DNA from: Podospora anserina | Lineage: Eukaryota | Direction: 5' to 3' | Length of the DNA stretch: 64,000 nucleotides | Assembly: GCA_017654855.1 (NCBI GenBank) | Contig: CM030332.1 | Span: 2,914,001-2,978,000, forward strand | In this document: in pieces, positions 13,501-45,400 of the stretch | Layout of the letters: every line of letters begins with the position of its first letter | Position numbering within the stretch: the first letter of the stretch is position 1 | Position numbers and translations under genes: made by a program | Notes under the pieces: generated by a model | What the model was told of the DNA's origin: nothing | The model's input: the letters and a program-made list of their open reading frames with translations, nothing else | Databases searched by the model: none

Positions 13501-13714
13501 TTATCGACTCTCCACCGGTGAATCGGTCGATCCACTTGGTGTTCCAGCTACCGAAGGGTCCTGCTCGGCGTCCCAAGCCGTCGATCGTTTGGATCTGTAC
13601 ACAGACTACCGTCTGGGAGTTTGAATGGACTAATTAAAAAAGACACTGGGGATCTCTGGGCTGGCTGGGTGAGGCTAAAACATTTTACACAACAAAAACT
13701 GCTCAGCCGACACC

Positions 13715-16700
13715 ATGTCGAGTAAGTCGCAAAACGGTCGTATGAGCGTCTTTGGTTTGCGGCTTCCCGCGTTTCACTTTGAAAAAGAAGGCCAGGACAA
13801 GAGCGAGGGAGAAACAGACGTAACTAGTCTTGGCAGCAGCACAAGCAGCGAGCTCTCTGCAAAGACCGAGAGGCCTGCTACGCCACGTTCCGAGACGGAT
13901 AGCGGCAGCTCTGGGTCTCCTGTTACCGGGCATTGCTGTACGTACCCAAGCACAAGCCTAGTGTGTACGAGCCAGAACAGTGGGTTCCGAAGATCTGGGT
14001 TCATGGTTGCTCACCACGCGTTTTCATGCAGATTCGCACCGTCGTTTCCCTTCTCAGCCCCAGAACAGGCCGATCCATCGAAAACCGGTTCCGAGCAAGT
14101 CTTATACCCCCTATACCCCGCCAAACAATACCAACGCAGCTCCAACCACCACCACCACTACCACCACTACCCCCACCACCATCAAAAACTACACCAACTC
14201 GACCGGTCCCTTTGAGCCGCCTAATGAACCGGTCAGTAACGTGAAGAGTAACGACTCACCTCTTCAGCCTGTAACCAATTTCGCGCCTTCCTCACCACCA
14301 CGCCCACACCACAACGTCTTGGGCTCTCCCTTCCAGCCCAAAAAAGCTCCCACCATGCCCGTCTCCAAACCCCCTCCGCAGCAGGCCATACCGGCCATCC
14401 ATCCACACCTAGCTTCACCTCCCCCCGGCGTACCGAATGTCATGACGACGGCAGCTACCCCGGCGGCCACCACAGAACCCAGAAAGCTACAGAGAAACAG
14501 AAGCCCCTCCCCCGAAGGCCCTCCTCCATCGGCGGCGGCCAACAAGCTCCATGCAAACCGTCTTCACCCTCGTCACCAATCCCCAGGTGCGGCGCCTAGA
14601 GGTCGCAGTGTCTCGGCCCAGCCACCCACAGGAGGAGGACCAAGGGGACTCTCTGTCGATGCTTCCAGGGCAGTGTCCAACCCACTCGAGTTCCGTGCGG
14701 ACTCGCAGCCACGGTCCAGCGAAGCAGGAGGGAACCTCAGTCCCACCACTGCGGCCGGCGGTGCTGCCCCTCCAGAAACCAAGAAGAAAGTACGGAAGAG
14801 CTGGCTGCCTGGGGCAAGGTCAAGGTCCAACTCGAACGACTTGGGGAAGCCAAAGGGCACAGGAGCGTGGATCATGTCGCCGGATAACCAGGTGGATTAC
14901 AATGTCGCTCCCTTGTTTACCGGGGATAAGGTGAGCAACCTCGATCATGAAATGCTTGGCGAAATCACACTTCTGACCTTAATATCTGATGTCATAGGTC
15001 CCCGAGCTATGGAACGAACAGGGGAATGTGCTGGTGTACCTGCACCCAAAGGAAAGAGGGCTCGGGCCTTCGTTTAGGGTGCATGATTATGCGTTCAGTT
15101 CGTCATTGATACTGAACGAGCTGTTGGTGCAGGAGATGATGGCCTTGGCGGCGATGAGCTCCGACTTTTTGGGGGTGGATGACGCCGAACGGCGCCAACA
15201 ACGGCCGGGGCTGCAGTCGCGGAATTCGGGAGGGGGCGGTGGTCTTGTTGCTGATGGGCACTTGTATCTGCCTCTTGGGAACAACGAGGTGGACTGCCTC
15301 GTGGCGGCGAGGAACTTGTTTGCGTTTTTGACGAACCAGCCTTTGGTCGGGACGCCTCAGCAGCCGACGCTGTTTCAAGCGCTCATTCAGATTTCGGAGC
15401 AGTTGAGGCAGTTTCAGTTTACGAATTATGACGGGACTTCGTACGGCGAGTCGGTGGACGCGTCGTTTGATATGCTTCTTGATCAGTTTCACATCGCCGA
15501 TGTTAGACACAGCCGAGAGAAGACGATTGAGGGGTTGGTGTTGGGGGAGCACATGAAGTCTTGGAACTTGTACAACGAAGCGTTTTCTCATGCGGTGGGG
15601 AAGTATGAGAGCTTGCTTGAGCTTAAACTCCCGCTCTACAACAGCATCTCGGCCGTCACGAGGGAAAGGCTGGAGCGCGCTCATCTGAGTCTTGCCAACC
15701 GCCAGGCCAACGTCCAAGGCCGCCTCGAAAACTTTGAGTACCCCTCTCTCTTCGCCGGCACCGCCAGCTCCACCTCCAACCCAGACTACCGCATCGTCCG
15801 CTTCAAAGAATGGCGCGCCGCGTTTTCCAGAATGAGGACGTTTGTCCTGGGGTACTACAAGGACTTGTTCGGGTCCTGGCCACCAAAGGCGCGCTCGAAA
15901 AAGAACCACTTTACCCAGTCTGGTCTCAACCGCCAGTGTCTAAAGATGCTGTATTCCGACCTCTGCGCGCTGTATGACCTCTTGGTGGACAGACAGTCGA
16001 TCACGCCCCGGGTGATCGACCAGGACTACTACGGCGCCGACTCGAAGAACGCGGAGGGAAAAGAAGACAAGAACAAGCCCAGCATGGAGCTCATCCCGGC
16101 GTGCGTCTCCGCCCTGAGGCAGATGCTCTCCGAATTTGAAAAGTCTTCCCCGCCGGTGCTGCCGCCCATCCCGTTTGACATACCCAAGATCCCGACCATG
16201 ACGGCCATCTACGAGACGTACGACAACCTGCCCGACAAGAAGAAGGCCAAGTTTGACAAGGGTTTGCAGACGCACGAGCTGCAGCTGATCATGATCAAGT
16301 CGAGGAACATGGACACGGACGCGCTGGGCATGCCTTTTTTGCAGGCGTACAAGGAGTTTGAGCTGAAAGAGGCCAAGGGGGTGCACCCGCACGACTTGAT
16401 TGATCACCGGATTGGGCACTGGTTGTTTTTGTATGTCACACTGCAGAGCCTGCCGATGCTGGTGGTGGACGCGCCCGGGTTGCATTACACGGAGGGGGTG
16501 GAGTACTTTTTGTGCGAGGCGCCGCAGGGGAACCCGCCGTGGAGGGCCGAGGACGTGGGGGAGGTGAGGAAGATGTGGTATCAGACTGCCGATCAGAAGA
16601 CTGTGGAGCTGAGCGCGGATGTGGTGCTCTTTAGTGTGGAGGGGGTTTACATGAGGAGTCATTGTTGGCTGGCGGGGAAGGAGTGGGAGGCGCAGAACAA

Positions 16701-22839: not shown

Positions 22840-24721
22840 TCAAGCAAGTACATTGACTGTGACGATAACCTTCTTCTTTTCGTCACCATGCTTCCCGACC
22901 TTCTTGAACAACTCCCTCAAGTCGTCAAAATCGAGACCTCTCGAGGCCTCTTTGCTGATGGTGATCTCGAGATGTAACTTGTACTTCTTCCCCTGCTCAG
23001 CGCTGGAACGGAACGAGATCTTGTCCCTGATGGCCTCATTAGACTTGGGCCACGCTGGAATGACTGTTGCCAGTGCTGCTGTTACAGCCCCCGTATAGTC
23101 TGCCCAGAAACCAGCGTTCGGATCTGCCGCATCGACAAGCTCGCGAAGATTCCGCTGGAGCTGTTGATCGATAGGGCACAGGTTTGCGCCCCAGCGTGCG
23201 CAGAGAGTCACAGCCAAAACCGCGCGAGCCAGATGCGTCAGACCCGGCGAGTCAGGATGGTTGATGGCATCGTGGAGAGCAGAAGACGCGTTGGCAGCAT
23301 CACTCTCGCCCATTCGACACCAAATGTGGCTGGCGTAAAGGGGACCAAGCTGCAGACTGAAGACGCTGGCTACGCTGGTCAAGTCGAAACCGGGCGGAAA
23401 TGCCGAGTGCAAGGTGCTGAGGAGGGCTTGTAGGGTTGTGCCACCTTGTGCTGGACCCGAAGGAATTGAGCTCTCAATGTCATCTGGAAGTGACAAAGGA
23501 TTGCTGTTCCTGATTTCCCGAGGTAGCATCATCAGCAACGCACCCTCCCGGTTGCCCCCTGAGCAGAACGTTGCTGAACGTATAGGGGGCACTGCTGCAA
23601 TGAGAGCTTCAACAACAGTGACAATGGCTGGAAACTGGGCACGTCTGCGTTTTGACATGCCAAAGATTTTGCCTTCAAAAGACTTGTTGACTTGAAGCAT
23701 CTCCTTGGTTTTGTTGAAGAGCTGTCCAGAGGCCGTGTATGATCCGATTGATGGGATCGGATAGGGCTGGATGGGATTCTTGTGCATGATCATGCTTCCG
23801 TAACCCCGGAACCCTCCGCCGCAGAGGAAGATATCGATCCCCGCCTCCTTCCCCCTCGCCTCAGCAGCAAGCTGGGCGAGGGTAGGAAACTTGGCGCACA
23901 GTGTCTGAAAAGCCTTAGCCATGCCATCTTGGAGCTTGGCTTTTTCGGACGTCTGCACATCGACGTGGGCGGTATCGAGAATCTTGATGAGGCGAGCAGC
24001 TCCAAACGGCAGACTCTGTCCCGCAACCGCTGCTTCCACCTCAGGGAGAGGCTGTCCCTGGTCCTGTTGATGCCCAGAAGTACCAGACGTGTCCATCCAC
24101 GTCATCTGAACACTACCGCCGCCGAGATCGAGAATCAAGCCCTTCACATCAACAAAGCTTGACCGAGCCCCCACGGCTCCAAAGAGGGTCTCGACTTGAG
24201 GCGAAAGGATATGCACGCTCAGATCGGGAGCCTCGGCACGTATCGCCTCGAGCATAGACGCGGCATTCTCGGCCCGGCGCATGGCTTCTGTCGCAAAGAC
24301 GATCAGCTGACTGGGAGGCACATCATAGCTGTCGACAGCAATAGACCTGAAGCGTGCCAGTGTCTGCGAGACTTGCTTGATTGTCGCATCGGGGAAGACC
24401 AAGGGATGGTCGCCATGTGCCGATGTTGATGGCCGGTTCAGGGCATCGAACAACGAGATGGCCGCCCTTTCTCGGTAGAGACACTTGAGCAGGCGGGCCC
24501 GAGGAGGGCAGAGATCCGAGACAGAGAACCGAATGCCATTGCTTCGAGGGAAGCGTGATGTTTGATTAGGGAATGGTTACGGAGAAGGAAGAGAAGAAGG
24601 GGCGCTCGGCTTACCTTCCCATGTCAACCAGGGCATAGCGGTGGTTTTTGCTGTTGGGATCCCATCTCGGCAGCTTCTCCTTGTAATTGCCAATAGTGAC
24701 AATATCGACGGTGGAGGACAT
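22840..24721 (-). CDS. RTG2: Retrograde regulation protein 2 (Ppx/GppA, ASKHA family); one intron near 24543-24613
   Basis: MSSTVDIV...ALVDMGSNGIRFSVSDL...ATEAMR...DLGGGSVQ...SLPFGAA...CGGGFRGYG...GGNREG: Ppx/GppA motifs typical of fungal Rtg2. Confidence 0.88.
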
Positions 24722-37205: not shown

Positions 37206-38221
37206 AACATTCTTGGTTTTTTTTTTCCACATTGGATGTAAATATATAGGTTATACGCTTTTCGGTCTTTCTTTTTGCTTTTCTGTCTGTTTCCAAGGAT
37301 TTGCTTGCTTGTTGGGTGGTTGCTAGATGCATGATGAGGAGTTTAGGAGAAAAAGAATGTTCACTTGGTTTGTTTACAGGTGTTGTCGGCCACGCTCTAG
37401 TGTGATGACTGGCGTGGATCTGGTCTTGTGCAGATCGGCTTTGTTTGCCGCTTGAATATTTTATGCTCGACCGGTCTGGGGGGTGAGAGAACGGTTGACT
37501 CGCGTGGAGCTTGTCTGTTCTTTGGGTGAACGGTTCTGTGCTAGTCGTTGGTCGTTGAGGTTAGTTACATAACGGGCTCGCTTCAAGGAAAACTGCGCTT
37601 TGAGATGGTATGGTTCTTCCTCACAGTGGCGATGTCATCAATACTGGAAGTCTTTCATCTTGGTTTTCGAAACAGGTTGTCGCCCTCGGGCATATGAAGC
37701 GGCGCCGAGACATGTTAGGGCTCATATCCTCGCAGCTGTTGATGATTGACCTCACTTGTTACTATAGACTGTCCGCTGATTTCCGCTGACTGAGCGAGGG
37801 GTACGGGGTTTGTCTCTAGGCTCCGCTCGACGATTTCGAATCACGACTGATTGTTGTAGGTTTCTTCGAAACTCTTTTCCTGACAGGCTGCAAAAGATCG
37901 CTCGACAACTCAGCGACGACGACGACGGCATATTCAGTCTTTGATGGGACTTCGGCCCTGATGAAGGGCCTCTGAAGCTCTCAACAATTCCCGAGAGAGC
38001 ATTCCCGAGTGGGCGTTCATTCCTCGAGAGGGCATTCCCAATTAGTTGTTTTCGAAGAATATCCGAGAGGAAAGCATTCCAGCTCTTCGAAGGATCTACA
38101 ATCTCTCCCAAAGGTATGTACAACGCTGGCAACGGAATCTTCATGACAGAGTACTGACAAACAACGAACAAAACGATAGAGTCAAAACCCTCTCCCTCTA
38201 CAACCTCAACATCTTGCCGTC

Positions 38222-39235
38222 ATGGCACCCACCGTCATAGCAGACGAGAGCGTCTCCAACGTCCTCCGCTACCTGAAAATCCTTCACCGCCACATCTGCC
38301 ACACCCCAATCACCTACGACCCTCCCCCCCCCCCTCCACCTCCCTACTCCCACTCCCCTCCCGACCCTCCCCTGACAGTCCCCGACCCGAAAATCATCCT
38401 CAAGACGTACGACCAGCTAGACGAATGGTACGAGACACTTATCCACGTAGCCTGCCTCCTCAACCTTGCCCCCTTGTTCCTCGACCCACCCGACTTCTTC
38501 ACGGGGCACACCGACAAGATGACTTGGGATGACGAGAGGATGAACAACCAGACCGAGTTTGCGAGTTGTTACGATGATGATGGCGGGCAGACATATTCGC
38601 TTACCATCCTCAAGAAACCGGAGTACCCCGTGATATGGGAGCGTTTTCCCGGCGTGTTTCTGCATCGGTTGACGGTGCTGGAGGAAGAGAGTCTGATTGA
38701 GAGGGTTGAGAGGGATGATGAACGGGGTATATGGGGGTTTTTGGGGCAGGGGAATGGGAGTAGGTATACTATTGTTTGGAAGGAGGCGCCGAGTAGGGAG
38801 AGGGAGAGGAGGTTGGGGTGGGATAGGCTGGAGCGGGAGGAGAAGAGGGAGTGGGAGGGGGTGGTGGGGAGGTGGGAGAGGGAGATGAGGGGGTATGAGA
38901 GGCAGGTTTGGGCGTTGGGGTTGATGAGGGCTTGGTTGGGGGGGGCGATTGATAGGGGGTTGTTGAGGAAGGTGATGGATCCGGATGAGGGGGTGGTTTT
39001 TGAAGTTAGGAAGAGGGGGGGGAGGAGGAGGGATGATGATGTGGGGGATTGGGGGGAGGCGGGGGGATTGAGGAAGTTGGTCATGGGGTGTATGAGGGTG
39101 TTGGAGGTGGAGGAGGATGAGAGGTGGAGGGTTGAGGAGGAGAGGGAGGAGGAGGAGGAGGAGGAGGAGAATGAGGAGAATGAGAAGGAAAGGAGAAGGG
39201 AAATTAGGGAGAAGAAGAGGAAGGCGGTGGATTGA
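38222..39235 (+). CDS. Hypothetical protein (337 aa; Pro-rich N-terminus, Glu/Arg-rich C-terminus)
   Basis: Intronless ATG ORF with the same C-to-G compositional gradient as neighbouring genes; no family recognised. Confidence 0.6.
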   Translation: MAPTVIADESVSNVLRYLKILHRHICHTPITYDPPPPPPPPYSHSPPDPPLTVPDPKIILKTYDQLDEWYETLIHVACLLNLAPLFLDPPDFFTGHTDKMTWDDERMNNQTEFASCYDDDGGQTYSLTILKKPEYPVIWERFPGVFLHRLTVLEEESLIERVERDDERGIWGFLGQGNGSRYTIVWKEAPSRERERRLGWDRLEREEKREWEGVVGRWEREMRGYERQVWALGLMRAWLGGAIDRGLLRKVMDPDEGVVFEVRKRGGRRRDDDVGDWGEAGGLRKLVMGCMRVLEVEEDERWRVEEEREEEEEEEENEENEKERRREIREKKRKAVD

Positions 39236-39403
39236 ATGGTGCAAGGAGGTTGTGTAGGACGTTGTTGTTTAGATTCTGTATAACAGACCATTGTTGACCG
39301 TACCTGGCCTCGATGACATTCCCCGCGGTTTGATGCTCCGAGGTGATTGATTTATTTGGCCATAACAGTCATCAACTTACATCTTAAAAAGGAATAGCCG
39401 TCC

Positions 39404-39529
39404 TAACTATCCTTTCAGGCCTGTTAACTATTAGTTAAGGTCTTTCAAATATCCCTTACAACCTACTGACTATCTTTGAAGGCCTGCTGACCATCTCTCA
39501 AGACCTATTAACTGTCTTTCAAGGCCGTC
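39404..39529 (+). repeat. Degenerate 21-bp tandem minisatellite, 6 units (consensus approx. TAACTATCTTTCAAGGCCTWT)
   Basis: Units in exact 21-bp phase: taactatcctttcaggcctgt, taactattagttaaggtcttt, caaatatcccttacaacctac, tgactatctttgaaggcctgc, tgaccatctctcaagacctat, taactgtctttcaaggccgtc. Confidence 0.85.
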
Positions 39530-40035
39530 GTTGAAGGGGCAATGTCGCTTTTGATCAAAGGAGCAATCCGGATGTGTTCGTCACGGAAGTAATGGTTGAG
39601 GAGAAGGGAGCGTGTTTCTGGCTTTGGAGGATCGGGCTTGGGACCGTGACTGGTCCATTTGTTGAGCCTTTGGAAGCCCTGTTAAGGACATCACAGGTCT
39701 CTGAAACTCCCACCTTCCACCAGCTAAGGTAGGTTAAACTTTTTAAGCCATCAATCCATTTCCTCGGTGCAATTTCCTCGTGTTCTTCTGGTTCTTTCCA
39801 TTCCCCTGGGTATGGAAGTTGAAAACGGAGGGAATCTCAGCTGTGGCTTCCCATGACTACAAACTGAGACCAGTCCATCAACCGTTTCAGCGTACGACGA
39901 CGTCGTTTCCAGCTCAACGATCGACCTATTCTTCATCAATTCCCAAAACGCCATGTTGCACCTAGTTTGAGTTGCCTCTTACTTCCTCTTCAACTTGCTT
40001 CCCCTAGACAGCCAGTGAATCTAACTTTCACATAG

Positions 40036-41482
40036 TATCCTCGCGCTCTTCGGTGAGAAAGTCACCATGCAATTCATGAGCCAGGCTACCGGCTGGGCCG
40101 ATAGCATCATCTTGGCAATGGCCCCATTGGGCATTATTACCATCATCGTGGCAGCTATTCGTGTTGGTGGCCCCTTCTGGCTCGGATCAGTAATCGGAAG
40201 AGCTCGGGAGAACCGCGCGGTGCCAGAGGCCGAGTTGATGTCGTCAACCTCTTATGAGGTACGTGAGCTCTGGAATGGCCAAGAGATTGTCCGGGTTATG
40301 GGTCAGGGGCCCATTCGAGAGTTTATTATTCTCATACCTGAGGATAAAACCAAGGATGAAAAAGAAACGGAAGAGGGGCGGGAAGGCCATATGCTCGAAG
40401 TGAGGGCAATGGAACTGAAAGACCCCCCACAAAATGAACAAGGAGTACTTGGGGCCATGTGGTACGTGTATCTGTCGCCACAATGGGTACTATTTTTTCA
40501 AAGTAGTGTGCTCGCCTGGGCTGGGGTAGCTACCTACTACTTTCAATATCCGAAGGACGACAAGGAAGGAGAACCCGTCGCATGGGTTCGTCGAAATTTC
40601 AACAAGAATCCCGAAGCAGTTCCTCTTACGGCCGGATTCGAATTGGACTGGCTTGTAATGACTCTCGAAAAGCACAGGACTGCCCTTTGGTTCTTGTCAA
40701 AGTCCGATGAAGACTGTGGCCAGTTGGATGAGTCTTCGAGACCATGGGCAAAGGGTGATGATTCTTGGGACTGGAGAGTCGCGGCCGTCCAGAACCCCAA
40801 CAACGTGAAAATGGATCCTGATGAGCACAAGTCCGAGTCGAGGCCTCAAAGACTTATGCGCATTCGGAGAGAGCTTGGTAAACTTGCTGGTTGGGCTGGG
40901 GTTGCGTCAGCGGAAGCAATTTCACTCACGCGAGCCATCGAATTTACAATGGACACCCTTTTCAGTCATGGGCCCATAGATTCAGGAGACATGTGGTGGT
41001 CACTTACTGTCAGCGGTGAGCCTGTTTACTTTCGTCGTTCATGGAAAGCCGGACACTGGACGGCATACTCGGATGAGCTGGACTCGGTTCTCCCTCTGTG
41101 GATGTATTCTGCCCACGAGAAAGAGCAACGCAAACATACGAAAGAAGGTGACAATACAAAAGGGGATGACAAAAGCAAGACCTCGGACCAGTGGTTGAGC
41201 GATAAAGGCACCTCGAAAAAGCCGAGCCTGCAGATCTTAGCCATCCGCCGACCAAGAAACACACAACGATATGTCAGCCTCACCTCACCAACTTACAACT
41301 TTTCATCGCCTTCCTTGTCTTCCCCAGGAACTGCGTCAGATGGTATGGAAGATGGCCATCCGGCCAAAGGTCCCGGCCGCGCATCGATTTCCTATCTACG
41401 ACGTGGGGGCCGTCCCCGAGACGCTTCACAGAACCTGCGACTTGATATACCACGACCCACGTGTCACCACCCGCGAGACTAA
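40036..41482 (+). pseudogene. Truncated relic of a large fungal ankyrin-repeat-associated membrane protein (N-terminal region only)
   Basis: ILALFGEKVTMQFMSQATGWADSIILAMAPLGIITIIVAAIRVGGP..IGRAREN..EAELMSSTS.EV.ELWNGQ matches, from memory, the N-terminus of such proteins. It follows an orphan acceptor (ctaactttcacatag) with no recognisable upstream exon, has no ankyrin repeats, and its 3' end runs out of frame into the next gene. Confidence 0.6.
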
Positions 41483-42488
41483 TAGAGAGCAACTATACAA
41501 GATTTGCGCTCCCCAAGACATCACTGGAACAGATTCTCAGGCAAAAACCTACTCGTGGGATGGAAACAATAGCTCGGCATACATCTAGGACGCCGGTTTA
41601 TGGGAGGCATGTGCCGAGTCGAAGCGTGTTGCGCTGTAGGAGTGGAGAACTCGAGTCGAAACCGATATGTTGGAGGATATACGGCTACAAGAAAATGACG
41701 GCTATGACCTAGAGAGTGCCTCTGAGCTGGTAAAGGAAGTGTACGTGAGTCATTATGTTTACACATCAGCGTCACCAATCACCCACTACCAACGAAATCT
41801 CCCCAGCTCGGCCGTAACGGAGACGGCCCCCCTTTTAGTCATTGCGCTAAGGGATCTGTTTTGGCTCGATGTCCAGTCGACGGCTCTTCTTTTCGACGAT
41901 TTTTGGCTTGGGGACTCGGAGGGGATCGAGTTCATGGAACGTCTAGTATGCCCTTCTAGCTTTTTCCCACAAGTGTACGGAGGATATGGGCTGTGGCCGA
42001 GCAACATCACGATCGAGGTTGATCCGGCCTGGAATGACATATGCGTGCAGGGCGACCAGTTTCCAATCCTTGACGCCATGGTTGGTAAACCAGCGGATGG
42101 GTCGCCCCGAGATTTTCTGTTCCGGGCCATCGACTATTGCCACAAGTTGGTCGTCGACAAGTATATCACCAACGGCAACGATGAAACGGACGAACACCCG
42201 TCTATCTGGCTCATTGACAGTGGGCGTGGTGGTGCCCAGTATCGCCGCCGAGGTGGCCGAAACTCACCTTCATGGCCGGATTGCACATACGAAACTGGCG
42301 GCTGGGCGAAGGGTGCTGTCTTTTATGACTGCGAGCATACCTACATGGAGGCAGACAGCTACGGTCCACTCATCGGGGAAATTTTGTTCACGAGGATCTC
42401 AGAAAGAGACAGCTGGGTTAACGGTGGACCCGAGGATGTGATATTCGAGGTGTCGCGGTGCGTCGCTGTGCTTGTGGTGACGCCTTGA
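41271..42488 (+). pseudogene. 2EXR-domain protein gene with two in-frame TAG codons (41586-41588, 41637-41639); pseudogene or A-to-I-corrected gene
   Basis: MSASPHQLTTFHRLPCLPQELRQMVWKMAIRP is 2EXR/F-box-like. ORFs 41271-41588 and 41667-42488 share one frame: ...NSSAYI*DAGLWEACAESKRVAL*EWRTRVETDMLED... Confidence 0.72.
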
Positions 42489-45400
42489 GAAGTGTTTTCT
42501 CCAAGATTGTGTGTGGGTACTGGGTCAACAAACCAAGATAGCAGAATTGTTGTATTTTTGAATATATGCATAACTTTGTTGCTCGTTCCTTGTCCCGCTA
42601 CGCACACCAGTTGGTGCGAGCATGGTCTTATTGGAACATGATACACCTGAGTGAACAGCTTCTGGGTCTGGCTATTGTTGGCCTTCAAAACATACGCTCG
42701 TCATGGAACTTGAATCTGCACACCTTTCTCTTGATTACCAACTTCCCCCCAGAACTCTACAGTCCCCGCAACACTCACCGTCGCGTATCTCTGATGTCAC
42801 CGGTTCCCGAGCTGACCGAGCTGGATTTTTCGTGTCATTGTTCTGTTTAATTGTTACAATTGCCACGATCAAGAGGCTGAAAGAGAGACATATCAGAAAA
42901 AAAAAGGGAGGAGGCAAGAGATGAGGGGGGGAGATGGCGACCGGTCGCGTGGGACAGACAGGTGGGCTTGACTCGAGAAGCAAGGTGAACACGGATGTGG
43001 CGTGAAACTTCCACTCTGGAGAAACGGGTTGTGTCCGTGTTGCTGTTAGTGGGTTCGGAGTTGGGCTATACGAAGGGGGAATATGGTGAAGGTAGTCAAC
43101 CAAGTTGTAGTTGGCATATGCTTGACTTGATGTTTCGAGGCATATATCAAAAAAGAGACGGGCGTACCTCATTGGTCAATACCCCCATTGCCCAGATGAT
43201 TCACGACGAACGGTTCTTCTCAAAAGCCACCAAATGACTTGCCGCATTTCCCAAGTCTCGATTCGCACTTATGCATGCAGGTCGCAGGTCACGGAATCGC
43301 TGTCGGTCGCTTTTTGGGCGGCCGGCCGGTGTACCTGCTGTGAACTGCTGCGGTGCGAGGTTGATGTGTAACTGGTGATCGTGGAGAATCCCTGTTCAGA
43401 TAATACTCTTCTTTCTGTTTTTTATGTACAAGATCCAAGGAACTGGAAGGGAGGTTCCTGTTTCCAGGTTAGGTGAGGTCTCCGTGAACTCAACTCTTGA
43501 GACGTCAGGGTGGGATGGATATATGATTGGTTGGTCAGGGGTGTCTCGTCCTTATTAGGTAATTTTTGGTGTGGACCACACGCAATTCGAGGTTTTCCTC
43601 TTTGCCCACCCTCTGTGCCATCTGATTATTAGTTCGACTGCAGGAGCCGGGCTCAGCAGTTTTTCTTGTGTTTGGGATGCCACCGTCTTTCGGAAGACGC
43701 AAGAATAATCAACAATAATACTGCGTAGCTAACACCACATTGGCATATGCAGCGAGAGATGCAGAGGGCCAGACTCTCAAGAATTTCAATGGAATAAATC
43801 ATTGGACGCTAGCTCGGATCAAGACCCACGGAACGAGCCCCGGGCGGACCCAGACCATCTCGGCAAGCCGTGGAAGTCCTGTTCGAAAAAGCTTGTCAAA
43901 GTGATCGATGGATCTACAATTTGTTTTCCACGGCCCCTGGAGGAGGCCTTGTCATGGAAGGAATTGTTGAGCTTCTAGTGAGAGAAGAGATGATAAGGTA
44001 GAGATGGATTCAGAGTTTGAATCTGCGATCCCGACATGTTTTGTGGCACGAGAGCAGGCGCAGACCCTGCTTGTGCCTTCGTGGTGCATTGCATGCAAAG
44101 GGTCCAGATCCTGCGGCACCGACCGTCGCGGCCCCAAACGGATCCAATGCAATTCGTCTCAAATGGCAATCCGGGGGGCCGTTCAGATGAACATGAAATT
44201 CGGTGCAATATCCGCGGAGGGGCCTCTGGGTCTCGGGGTATTCTTAGAGTCTGGAAAGTAGCACCGCGTTACGTCTTGCCTTCAACACAGATCCATAGAT
44301 GACCCGTTGACGTCGTTGCAACTGATGGCCAACTGCATATTCAGGTTCGGCACTCACGTCGAGGCGGAGTCTTTGTGTGACGCCTCCATGGCGCAACCTC
44401 TACGGACAGACCGGTGAGGGGCTTTGTAGTTGGAAGGGGCATGCATTGTGGTCTCTTGAGGACAAATATTAGTTCTAGGAAAGGGGAAAAGCGCAGTCTG
44501 CACCCCATGGTTTTTGCTCTCTCTTGGGCCACCTAGGGAGTGCCCTGGGCGCTATCGCACCGCAGCACCGTTACGCTGTTGCCGTCTGAGCCCAGGGACA
44601 CCCGCACACCGTCTAGCTGCTTCAGTGCTAGCCCAGCCATAATTGGAACCATTTGCACACGCTTTTCCCAAAATGGCATGGGGGCCAGAAGCAAATTCAT
44701 GTGGGCGCTGGCTTCGCAGGTTGGCTTTCCGTTAGGGACCCGCTTCCCCGTTCATTCCCCTGGCCATCCCCCTTCCTCGGCCTGGCCTGCGAACGCAACG
44801 TGACGCTTCTTTCTGTTCTCACAATCATCCTCCTCCAACTTGTGGTGTTGTGAGACCCCAGGACGAACGATCTGACCTATCTATTTGCCGCCTACCTACC
44901 TTACCTACTCTCGTTTCCAATTCTCACGCTCGTTCTACCCCGTCCGTTCGTTGCCGCCATTCGTGACTTGCCCGTTGCTTTTTCTCCTTTTCTACCACCT
45001 TACTACCTTACTTACCACAACCTGTGTGGCTCTTTTATCGGCTGCTCACCCGCCCGCAGTTCCTGTCTCTGAATGCGCCGCCCATCCCCGCGACGATACC
45101 GGCTTGGACCTTGAAACGACAGCCCTCACCCGCCGCACCCCTCAAAAATCTTGATGTTGTTTCGAGAGAGGCATCAGCACCTCGAGTTACCACTGGCTCA
45201 CCCGCATCTTTACATTTGACGCTGCCTCTTTTTACGCGAGCCGACAATCTTCCCGATCGCGGTTCACCCTTCTCCAAGCCACCAAATACTCGCGCATCTT
45301 TTAGGTCGATCCCGCATGGTTCGAGTCGCACGCCACACTTCGTTTGCCGGTTGGGTGGTCTGAGTCGGCCAGAGTTGACCTCATATTTTATGCGCCTTTA

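Follow-up and report, generated by a model that had tools for sequence, protein, structure and literature searches.

Why is a long coding frame in a filamentous fungus, otherwise open, interrupted by exactly two UAG codons, and what becomes of those codons in the mRNA? The question is raised by a gene of the 2EXR family in a 64,000-nucleotide stretch of DNA (the window, by which we mean the whole stretch analysed) from the Podospora anserina species complex. At the DNA level this gene is a pseudogene, with two UAG codons within its conserved N-terminal domain. We give roughly even chances to the reading that both UAGs are changed in perithecia by adenosine-to-inosine (A-to-I) mRNA editing, which would make the gene a pseudogene of the premature-stop-corrected (PSC) type. 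In the following sections we set out the evidence for this reading, the observations that speak against it, and the alternatives.

A single 2EXR frame broken only by two UAG codons

The gene and the elements needed to follow the argument are:

41271 to 42488, plus strand: 2EXR-family frame of 405 codons, from ATG 41271 to TGA 42486-42488, open save for two TAG codons
41586 to 41588, plus strand: first premature TAG (site 1), codon 106, in the context C-U-A-G-G-A-C, reading SAYI*DAGLWEACAES
41637 to 41639, plus strand: second premature TAG (site 2), codon 123, in the context G-U-A-G-G-A-G, reading VAL*EW
41301 to 41645, plus strand: match to Pfam 2EXR (PF20150), residues 11-125 of the product read with TAG as Trp, spanning both stops

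The two TAG codons, 51 nt apart and each followed by GA, are the only internal stops; a census of the frame counts 12 TGG, 2 TAG and 0 TAA codons, with TGA at the terminus only, and finds no frameshift. When TAG is read as Trp, the product matches PF20150 with an E-value of 1e-5 and 27 bits, against a cut-off (gathering score) of 24.8, and both stops fall inside this sole recognised domain. The near-invariant residues of the family are all kept in the frame: F11, F14, L17, P18, I25, W26, R31, H38, P81 and N100 in the earlier part of the domain, and S102, Y104, D107, G109, L110, W111, A113, C114 and S117 around the first stop. A preliminary description of this locus had proposed a single 405-codon 2EXR frame broken only at 41586 and 41637, with both stops in TAGGA and no frameshift; the frame, the codon census and the Pfam score bear out each of these points.

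Sequencing error can be excluded as the source of the stops. A 9362-nt contig from an independent run (X1) is identical across the whole 2EXR gene and differs from the window only at 40797 and 41037, upstream of it, and all 142 words sampled from the stretch are present in 17 runs; the stops are therefore not sequencing errors. A scan of the window for other long frames interrupted by TAG codons alone gave no convincing case.

The gene appears to be transcribed, without an intron that removes the stops

Three further runs (X18, X19 and X20) behave like RNA and are taken as RNA only by guess; their tissue is unrecorded, and their contigs drop minor variants. Their depth is nil over the upstream open reading frame (ORF), two- to fourfold over pieces of the 2EXR gene, and 12- to 15-fold over the downstream minus-strand gene; the stretches of the 2EXR gene that these contigs leave uncovered carry no information. 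One X18 contig (41572-41793, depth 2.9) spans both stops and has A at both, with no difference from the DNA; one X19 contig (41328-41595, depth 4.3) spans site 1 and likewise has A there and no difference. A transcript thus appears to be present, unspliced around the stops, its major form in these samples being unedited.

We considered an intron that would take out the stops and rejected it: the RNA-like contigs show no splice joint anywhere within the 2EXR gene, including the two stretches (41328-41595 and 41572-41793) that cover the sites. Across the two stops, 26 in-frame GT..AG pairings are formally possible; none has a GTRNGT donor, and every one would delete the invariant N.S.Y.D.GLW.AC.S motif. 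These contigs agree with the earlier view that no intron removes the stops, and the particular pairing raised there, of the GT at 41555 with the AG at 41638-41639, does span 85 nt and would shift the frame.

Near homologues carry Trp at the first site, and the nearest have Lys at the second

To place the stops in the family, we compared the frame with its homologues (a word-indexed search returned 3 relatives, and a full HMMER scan 220 at E <= 0.001). Across the stops, P0008, which is 43% identical, reads NNSVYMWDAGLWGACAESRRIVTKEWKARVQTD, P0010 reads DSMYLWDAGLWGACAESKRIVAKVWEGRVETA, P0009 reads STYLWDAGLWTACAESRRLMMKRRE, and the two Hirsutella proteins P0004 and P0005 read AYLWDAGLWTACRESRE[VI]MMWHFR. 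Site 1 is Trp in all seven of the nearest homologues that cover it, within a shared reading ...Y[LM]WDAGLW.AC.ES, and the Asp107 that directly follows is nearly invariant in the family. Ile leads in the wider column of 146 aligned members, with Trp next (I 57, W 32, V 15, T 12). At site 2 the four nearest homologues (P0008, P0009, P0010 and P0031) have Lys, the Hirsutella proteins Trp, and P0013 Arg; in the column of 78 aligned members the leading residues are R 20, K 17 and W 11. Trp is therefore tolerated at site 2, since it occurs in 11 of the 78 homologues, both Hirsutella proteins among them.

From these alignments, the likely histories are TGG to TAG at site 1 and AAG to TAG (or TGG to TAG) at site 2. 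The motif SAYxWDAGLWxAC, which the preliminary description had given for related 2EXR proteins, holds for the near relatives (7/7) but not family-wide, where Ile outnumbers Trp; its suggestion that an alignment of orthologues might show Trp at both sites is likewise upheld at site 1 and fails at site 2, where the nearest homologues have Lys.

The nearest named members of PF20150 are Hirsutella minnesotensis HIM_10677 and HIM_11580 (P0004 and P0005). They share with the window gene the N-terminal motifs F..LP.ELR..IW and N.S.Y.WDAGLW.AC.ES and the C-terminal blocks PRGF, IWLID and FYDC..Y, although their identity to the window product is only 27-34%. They differ from it in being intact, with Trp at both positions, whereas the window copy has the two stops and lacks a C-terminal [DE]xW block described below.

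A full-text literature search returned nothing on the 2EXR protein family. The model of P0009, an intact homologue of 419 residues, is one confident globular unit (predicted local distance difference test score, pLDDT, 77.3; predicted template modelling score, pTM, 0.80). Searched with Foldseek against the PDB it gave a best E-value of 0.3 with template modelling (TM) scores of at most 0.17, and a wide VIA-align search gave a best Z of 5.9, for a helical hairpin only; neither search yields a functional lead. Judging from these model comparisons, the fold of the 2EXR family seems uncharacterised, with no recognisable solved relative.

Both stops lie in the context favoured by fungal editing

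Of the three stop codons, A-to-I editing can make a sense codon of UAG alone, according to the parts of PMC11156358 that treat stop-codon editing. Editing sites in Fusarium prefer C or U at -2, U at -1, A or G at +1, G at +2, and A or G at +3 and +4, with the positions weighted in the order -1 > +1 > +3 > +2 (motif passages of PMC9600606). Both adenosines of interest here, 41587 and 41638, have the preferred U at -1, G at +1, G at +2 and A at +3, so that the U and G noted in the preliminary description are part of a wider fit, and each scores 5 of 6 motif positions. The single off-motif position differs between them: a depleted C at +4 for site 1, a depleted G at -2 for site 2.

How much should be made of this fit? 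All four core bases are preferred at only 3 of the gene's 285 adenosines, namely the two stops and 41849. A single base change can create a stop codon within the gene in 167 ways; 75 of these make TAG, and in 18 the TAG has preferred bases at -1, +1, +2 and +3. By our own estimate, the chance that two random nonsense hits would both fall in the preferred context is about 0.011. The repeated TAGGA pentamer is not an independent signal, because its GA is set by the next codons, Asp GAC and Glu GAG. On sequence grounds those codons still place both adenosines in a favoured context, where nonsense changes would be unusually editable.

A feature of predicted RNA structure accompanies the second site:

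41629 to 41647, plus strand: predicted small hairpin with a 5-nt loop, GUAGG (41636-41640), in which the A of the second TAG is the third base

This hairpin is predicted with flanks of 12, 25, 30 and 40 nt and is absent with flanks of 15, 20 and 60 nt. As a control, 16 of the gene's 50 UA sites lie in hairpin loops anyway, so the loop at site 2 is weak evidence, and hairpin preference in these predicted folds does not set the two stops apart from the gene's remaining UA sites. Passages of a Fusarium preprint (bioRxiv 10.1101/059725) offer a base rate for comparison: among edited genes, 323 of the 1559 canonical UAG stops are themselves edited.

The host lineage and the proposed route to a full-length protein

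The host can be placed from the window itself. The RTG2 ORF at 22840-24282 is identical to a Podospora comata cluster at 472 of 480 residues, the next matches being Triangularia and Apiosordaria at 83-86%; the window therefore belongs to the Podospora anserina species complex (Sordariales, Sordariomycetes). A-to-I editing is described as general in Sordariomycetes (PMC10776026, section 9; parts of PMC11156358) and is reported in Neurospora and Sordaria (the latter source), and the interaction of Ame1 with Tad3 is placed at an origin in Sordariomycetes in passages of PMC11156358 and PMC11087585. The sexual-stage editing that the preliminary description had presumed for its host therefore fits what those portions of the literature say of the class. 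In F. graminearum, 71 PSC pseudogenes are known, 6 of them with two sites (PMC10776026, sections 6 and 9), and their TAGs arose mostly from TGG, often from other codons one change away (PMC10776026).

The window gene shares a good deal with these Fusarium genes, which include PUK1, with two adjacent UAGs, and the two-site genes PSC03, 25, 34, 51, 62 and 68 (sections of PMC10776026 and PMC11156358). In both, in-frame UAG interrupts a frame that is undamaged apart from it, the adenosine concerned has U before it and G after it, one stop goes back to an ancestral TGG, the host is a Sordariomycete, and the protein is restricted to Pezizomycotina and has no assigned function. They differ in that editing is observed for the Fusarium genes, whereas that of the window gene is a candidate known from DNA in a species of the Podospora complex, and in that the window copy also has a deletion in a conserved motif.

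If editing acts here, we would expect the following course of events. In vegetative cells mRNA would be made at a low level and translated only as far as the stop at codon 106. The Tad2-Tad3-Ame1 deaminase of the sexual stage would, in perithecia, turn the middle A of each UAG to inosine, to be read as UGG (Trp). Editing to UGG would thus bring back the ancestral residue at site 1 and supply a residue tolerated by the family at site 2. The 405-residue protein would come only from transcripts edited at both sites. The chance of about 1% for the context, together with the precedent of two-site PSC genes, suggests that selection allowed only editable stops, and thus that the gene would have been editing-dependent when the stops arose.

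A deletion, damaged relatives and other observations against editing

A number of observations weigh against the reading just set out, and the most serious concern the state of the gene downstream of the stops, where two features are needed:

42375 to 42383, plus strand: junction, at codon 370 (GAA), where this lineage has lost 93 nt in frame; the 31 residues are still present in the relatives P0003 and P0006
41994 to 42272, plus strand: codons 242-334, a segment of 93 codons kept here and absent from the close relative P0006

The 31 residues kept by P0003 and P0006 and missing from the window product, DF[LS]LLRTDRGLPPYTEEWYQTSDCFMQWLNW, include a family-conserved [DE]xW motif. In an alignment of 150 sequences, 111 homologues extend to the C-terminus, and 100 of them have an aromatic residue in one column of the lost block (W 78, Y 18, F 4). 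In a smaller alignment (A1) the lost block corresponds to P0009 residues 371-397, two helices of the confident model. The two alignments position the block slightly differently, with conserved family residues inside it in both. The state is identical in the X1 contig, which has no indel there. Because P0003, P0006 and the family keep the block, this is a 93-nt in-frame loss of conserved sequence in the window lineage, and it was absent from the preliminary description. A model of the read-through product (pLDDT 74.0, pTM 0.78, with residues 381-390 at 59) resembles that of P0009, although AlphaFold is a poor judge of deletion lesions. Since a conserved Trp motif was removed, any rescued product would probably be impaired in this lineage.

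The close relatives are damaged too: another 93 codons are missing from P0006, and P0003 stops 11 residues short, lesions that may be real or may be assembly artefacts. Both P0003 (293 aa) and P0006 (211 aa) begin at Met133, the first Met past the second stop, so at least one upstream break is apparently common to them and the window. Taken together, the loss of a conserved motif in the window lineage and the damaged relatives indicate that constraint is now weak.

The RNA-level and comparative evidence adds to this. Editing at 41587 and 41638 was not observed in the contigs of the RNA-like runs of unrecorded tissue; the GA behind each TAG is dictated by the following Asp or Glu codon; and the A of site 1 is paired in the fold taken with 30 nt on either side, lying in a loop only in short windows. 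Our literature searches turned up no paper that shows A-to-I editing in Podospora, nor any that reports PSC genes there (one Podospora preprint cites other fungi only and lists ADAT genes), and a text search of Table S1 of PMC10776026 did not find a 2EXR gene among the 71 Fusarium PSC genes.

With these points admitted, we infer that editing occurs in this organism and at both sites at no better than the even chance given at the outset, and the version we favour is of a gene that would once have been editing-dependent and would now be decaying, rather than a well-kept sexual-stage gene. That the gene is still functional seems to us unlikely. We are similarly doubtful of a working, doubly gated sexual-stage gene in which both UAGs need editing on the same mRNA, protein output would scale with the product of the two editing levels, and the 31-codon deletion is tolerated or represents adaptive remodelling. 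All probabilities given in words here are rough, as they rest partly on the Fusarium counts (71 PSC genes, 6 two-site) and partly on guessed numbers of pseudogenes.

Alternative explanations for the two stops

The strongest rival is ordinary decay of a young pseudogene, in which two spontaneous nonsense mutations (TGG to TAG; AAG to TAG or TGG to TAG) were followed by the 93-nt deletion, the editing context is coincidental, and a residual low-level transcript was never usefully corrected. We regard this as a serious possibility, if one falling somewhat short of an even chance. It accounts readily for the A at both sites in the RNA-like contigs, and for three kinds of lesion in three close lineages (the 31-codon deletion in the window, the 93-codon deletion in P0006, and the 11 residues missing from P0003). 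The nearest of the more distant homologues are fragments as well (P0008, 255 aa; P0010, 116 aa), which fits a family of high turnover. Nor does divergence indicate unusual constraint: the window gene has 6 substitutions relative to P0003 in about 261 residues, which is not clearly higher than the 8 differences in 480 between the RTG2 ORF and its P. comata cluster, and at divergence this low we estimate that an open downstream frame would be expected even without selection. Set against such decay are the low chance that two TAGs would both have the preferred bases at -1, +1, +2 and +3; the fact that both observed indels are multiples of three; the apparent origin of the stops before the split from P0003 and P0006, with no further stop or frameshift since then in any of the three; and the in silico folding of the read-through product, subject to the caution on AlphaFold already given.

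An origin of the stops as scars of repeat-induced point mutation (RIP) after gene duplication, which the preliminary description had offered as an alternative, concerns how the mutations arose and is compatible with either fate of the gene; we consider it improbable. TGG to TAG is a classical nonsense change of RIP (CpA to TpA on the other strand), and site 1 is a change of this type. RIP is commonly called where TpA/ApT exceeds 0.89 and (CpA+TpG)/(ApC+GpT), the substrate index, falls below 1.03, with low GC content. With TpA/ApT at 0.68, a substrate index of 1.06, a composite index of -0.38 and GC at 0.54, the gene stays short of these thresholds and does not count as RIPped. Even so, among 11 coding stretches it has the lowest substrate index (the others range from 1.12 to 1.52), and its N-terminal third alone reaches 1.02. 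Codons of the form NTA make up 15 of 42 NTA and NTG codons in the gene, compared with 107 of 627 across 13 further ORFs (Fisher test, p 0.006), an enrichment that may equally come from weak codon bias. In P. anserina RIP prefers CpA/TpG (passages of PMC10787394).

Other evidence argues against RIP. The search for a duplicate that the preliminary description had proposed came back empty for the 64-kb window, where tblastn and blastn match only the gene itself. The four nearest homologues have Lys at site 2, and AAG to TAG is a transversion outside the RIP repertoire; transitions make up at most half of the six substitutions relative to P0003. The gene thus resembles RIP-inactivated Sordariales duplicates in the TGG to TAG change at site 1, and is unlike them in having no duplicate in the window, sub-threshold indices and, at site 2, probably a transversion.

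We also considered P0012, a 53-residue library protein corresponding to codons 270-321 (window 42078-42233), as a possible RIPped paralogue, and rejected it. All 15 of its amino-acid differences are of the C-to-T type; C is read as T at 18 of 18 detectable positions, in all dinucleotide contexts, G to A is seen at 0 of 34, and a CGA changed to TGA is read as Trp. Because C becomes T in every context with no G to A, P0012 looks like a translation of bisulfite-converted reads and not a product of RIP. We note in passing that just one 1-kb segment of the 64 kb, 13501-14500, has indices resembling those of RIP, with TpA/ApT at 1.16 and the substrate index at 0.98; this segment is rich in C, its translations are rich in Pro and Thr, and it contains no long ORF.

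Finally, we think it highly improbable that the functional unit is simply shorter, the stops marking a domain split between a 105-residue N-terminal fragment and a 273-residue ORF from Met133 (41667-42488, without 2EXR): public gene calls do match such pieces (P0003 and P0006 from Met133; P0007 covering residues 24-105), but the first stop lies within the helix of the near-invariant N.S.Y.D.GLW.AC.S motif, the confident P0009 model is one globular unit and not two domains, P0003 alone has no Pfam match, and the split architecture occurs in 0 of the 150 listed homologues. When fragments in relatives were sought with the first 132 residues as query, the window's own 82-residue piece, P0007, was the sole match.

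The neighbourhood of the gene

The ORFs around the 2EXR gene are of housekeeping type, encoding RTG2, an ERV-type transporter, NUP159, an endoplasmic reticulum (ER)-retention receptor and a fumarate-reductase-like flavoprotein. Immediately upstream lies one overlapping feature:

40067 to 41482, plus strand: ORF of 471 codons in another frame, overlapping the first 212 nt of the 2EXR frame; no Pfam match

This ORF, which we do not count as part of the 2EXR gene, has a hydrophobic N-terminus and holds both of the X1 differences (40797 and 41037), and contigs of X18, X19 and X20 give no cover over 39800-41281. Further upstream, a sharp swing in GC skew from -0.42 to +0.60 occurs at 38000-39500; the purine bias there is due to the Glu/Arg-rich tail of an ORF at 38222-39235, which combines a poly-Pro stretch with this long tail and has no Pfam match. 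On the downstream side, the minus-strand gene at 42592-43200 has a 56-nt GT..AG intron, seen in one contig that connects 42667 with 42724; the 145-codon ORF 42735-43172 has no Pfam match.

Implications for stop-codon editing in Podospora

Podospora anserina, whose sexual cycle is obligate, serves as a genetic model, and if both sites are edited the locus would provide a two-site case testable with uneditable and pre-edited alleles in a tractable fungus. Most of what is established about the restorative editing of premature stop codons comes from Fusarium graminearum; how widespread it is in other Sordariomycetes is debated, as is whether PSC genes are kept or are being lost at a slowed rate (PMC10776026; PMC13431901). 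Here the extra deletion would give a look at a PSC gene that is possibly decaying. Should the sites prove unedited, the gene would be an ordinary pseudogene and a useful negative control for the motif-based prediction of editing sites. On the less likely reading of a working, doubly gated gene, its protein kept strictly out of vegetative cells, Podospora would gain its first documented premature-stop-corrected gene and the 2EXR family its first such member.

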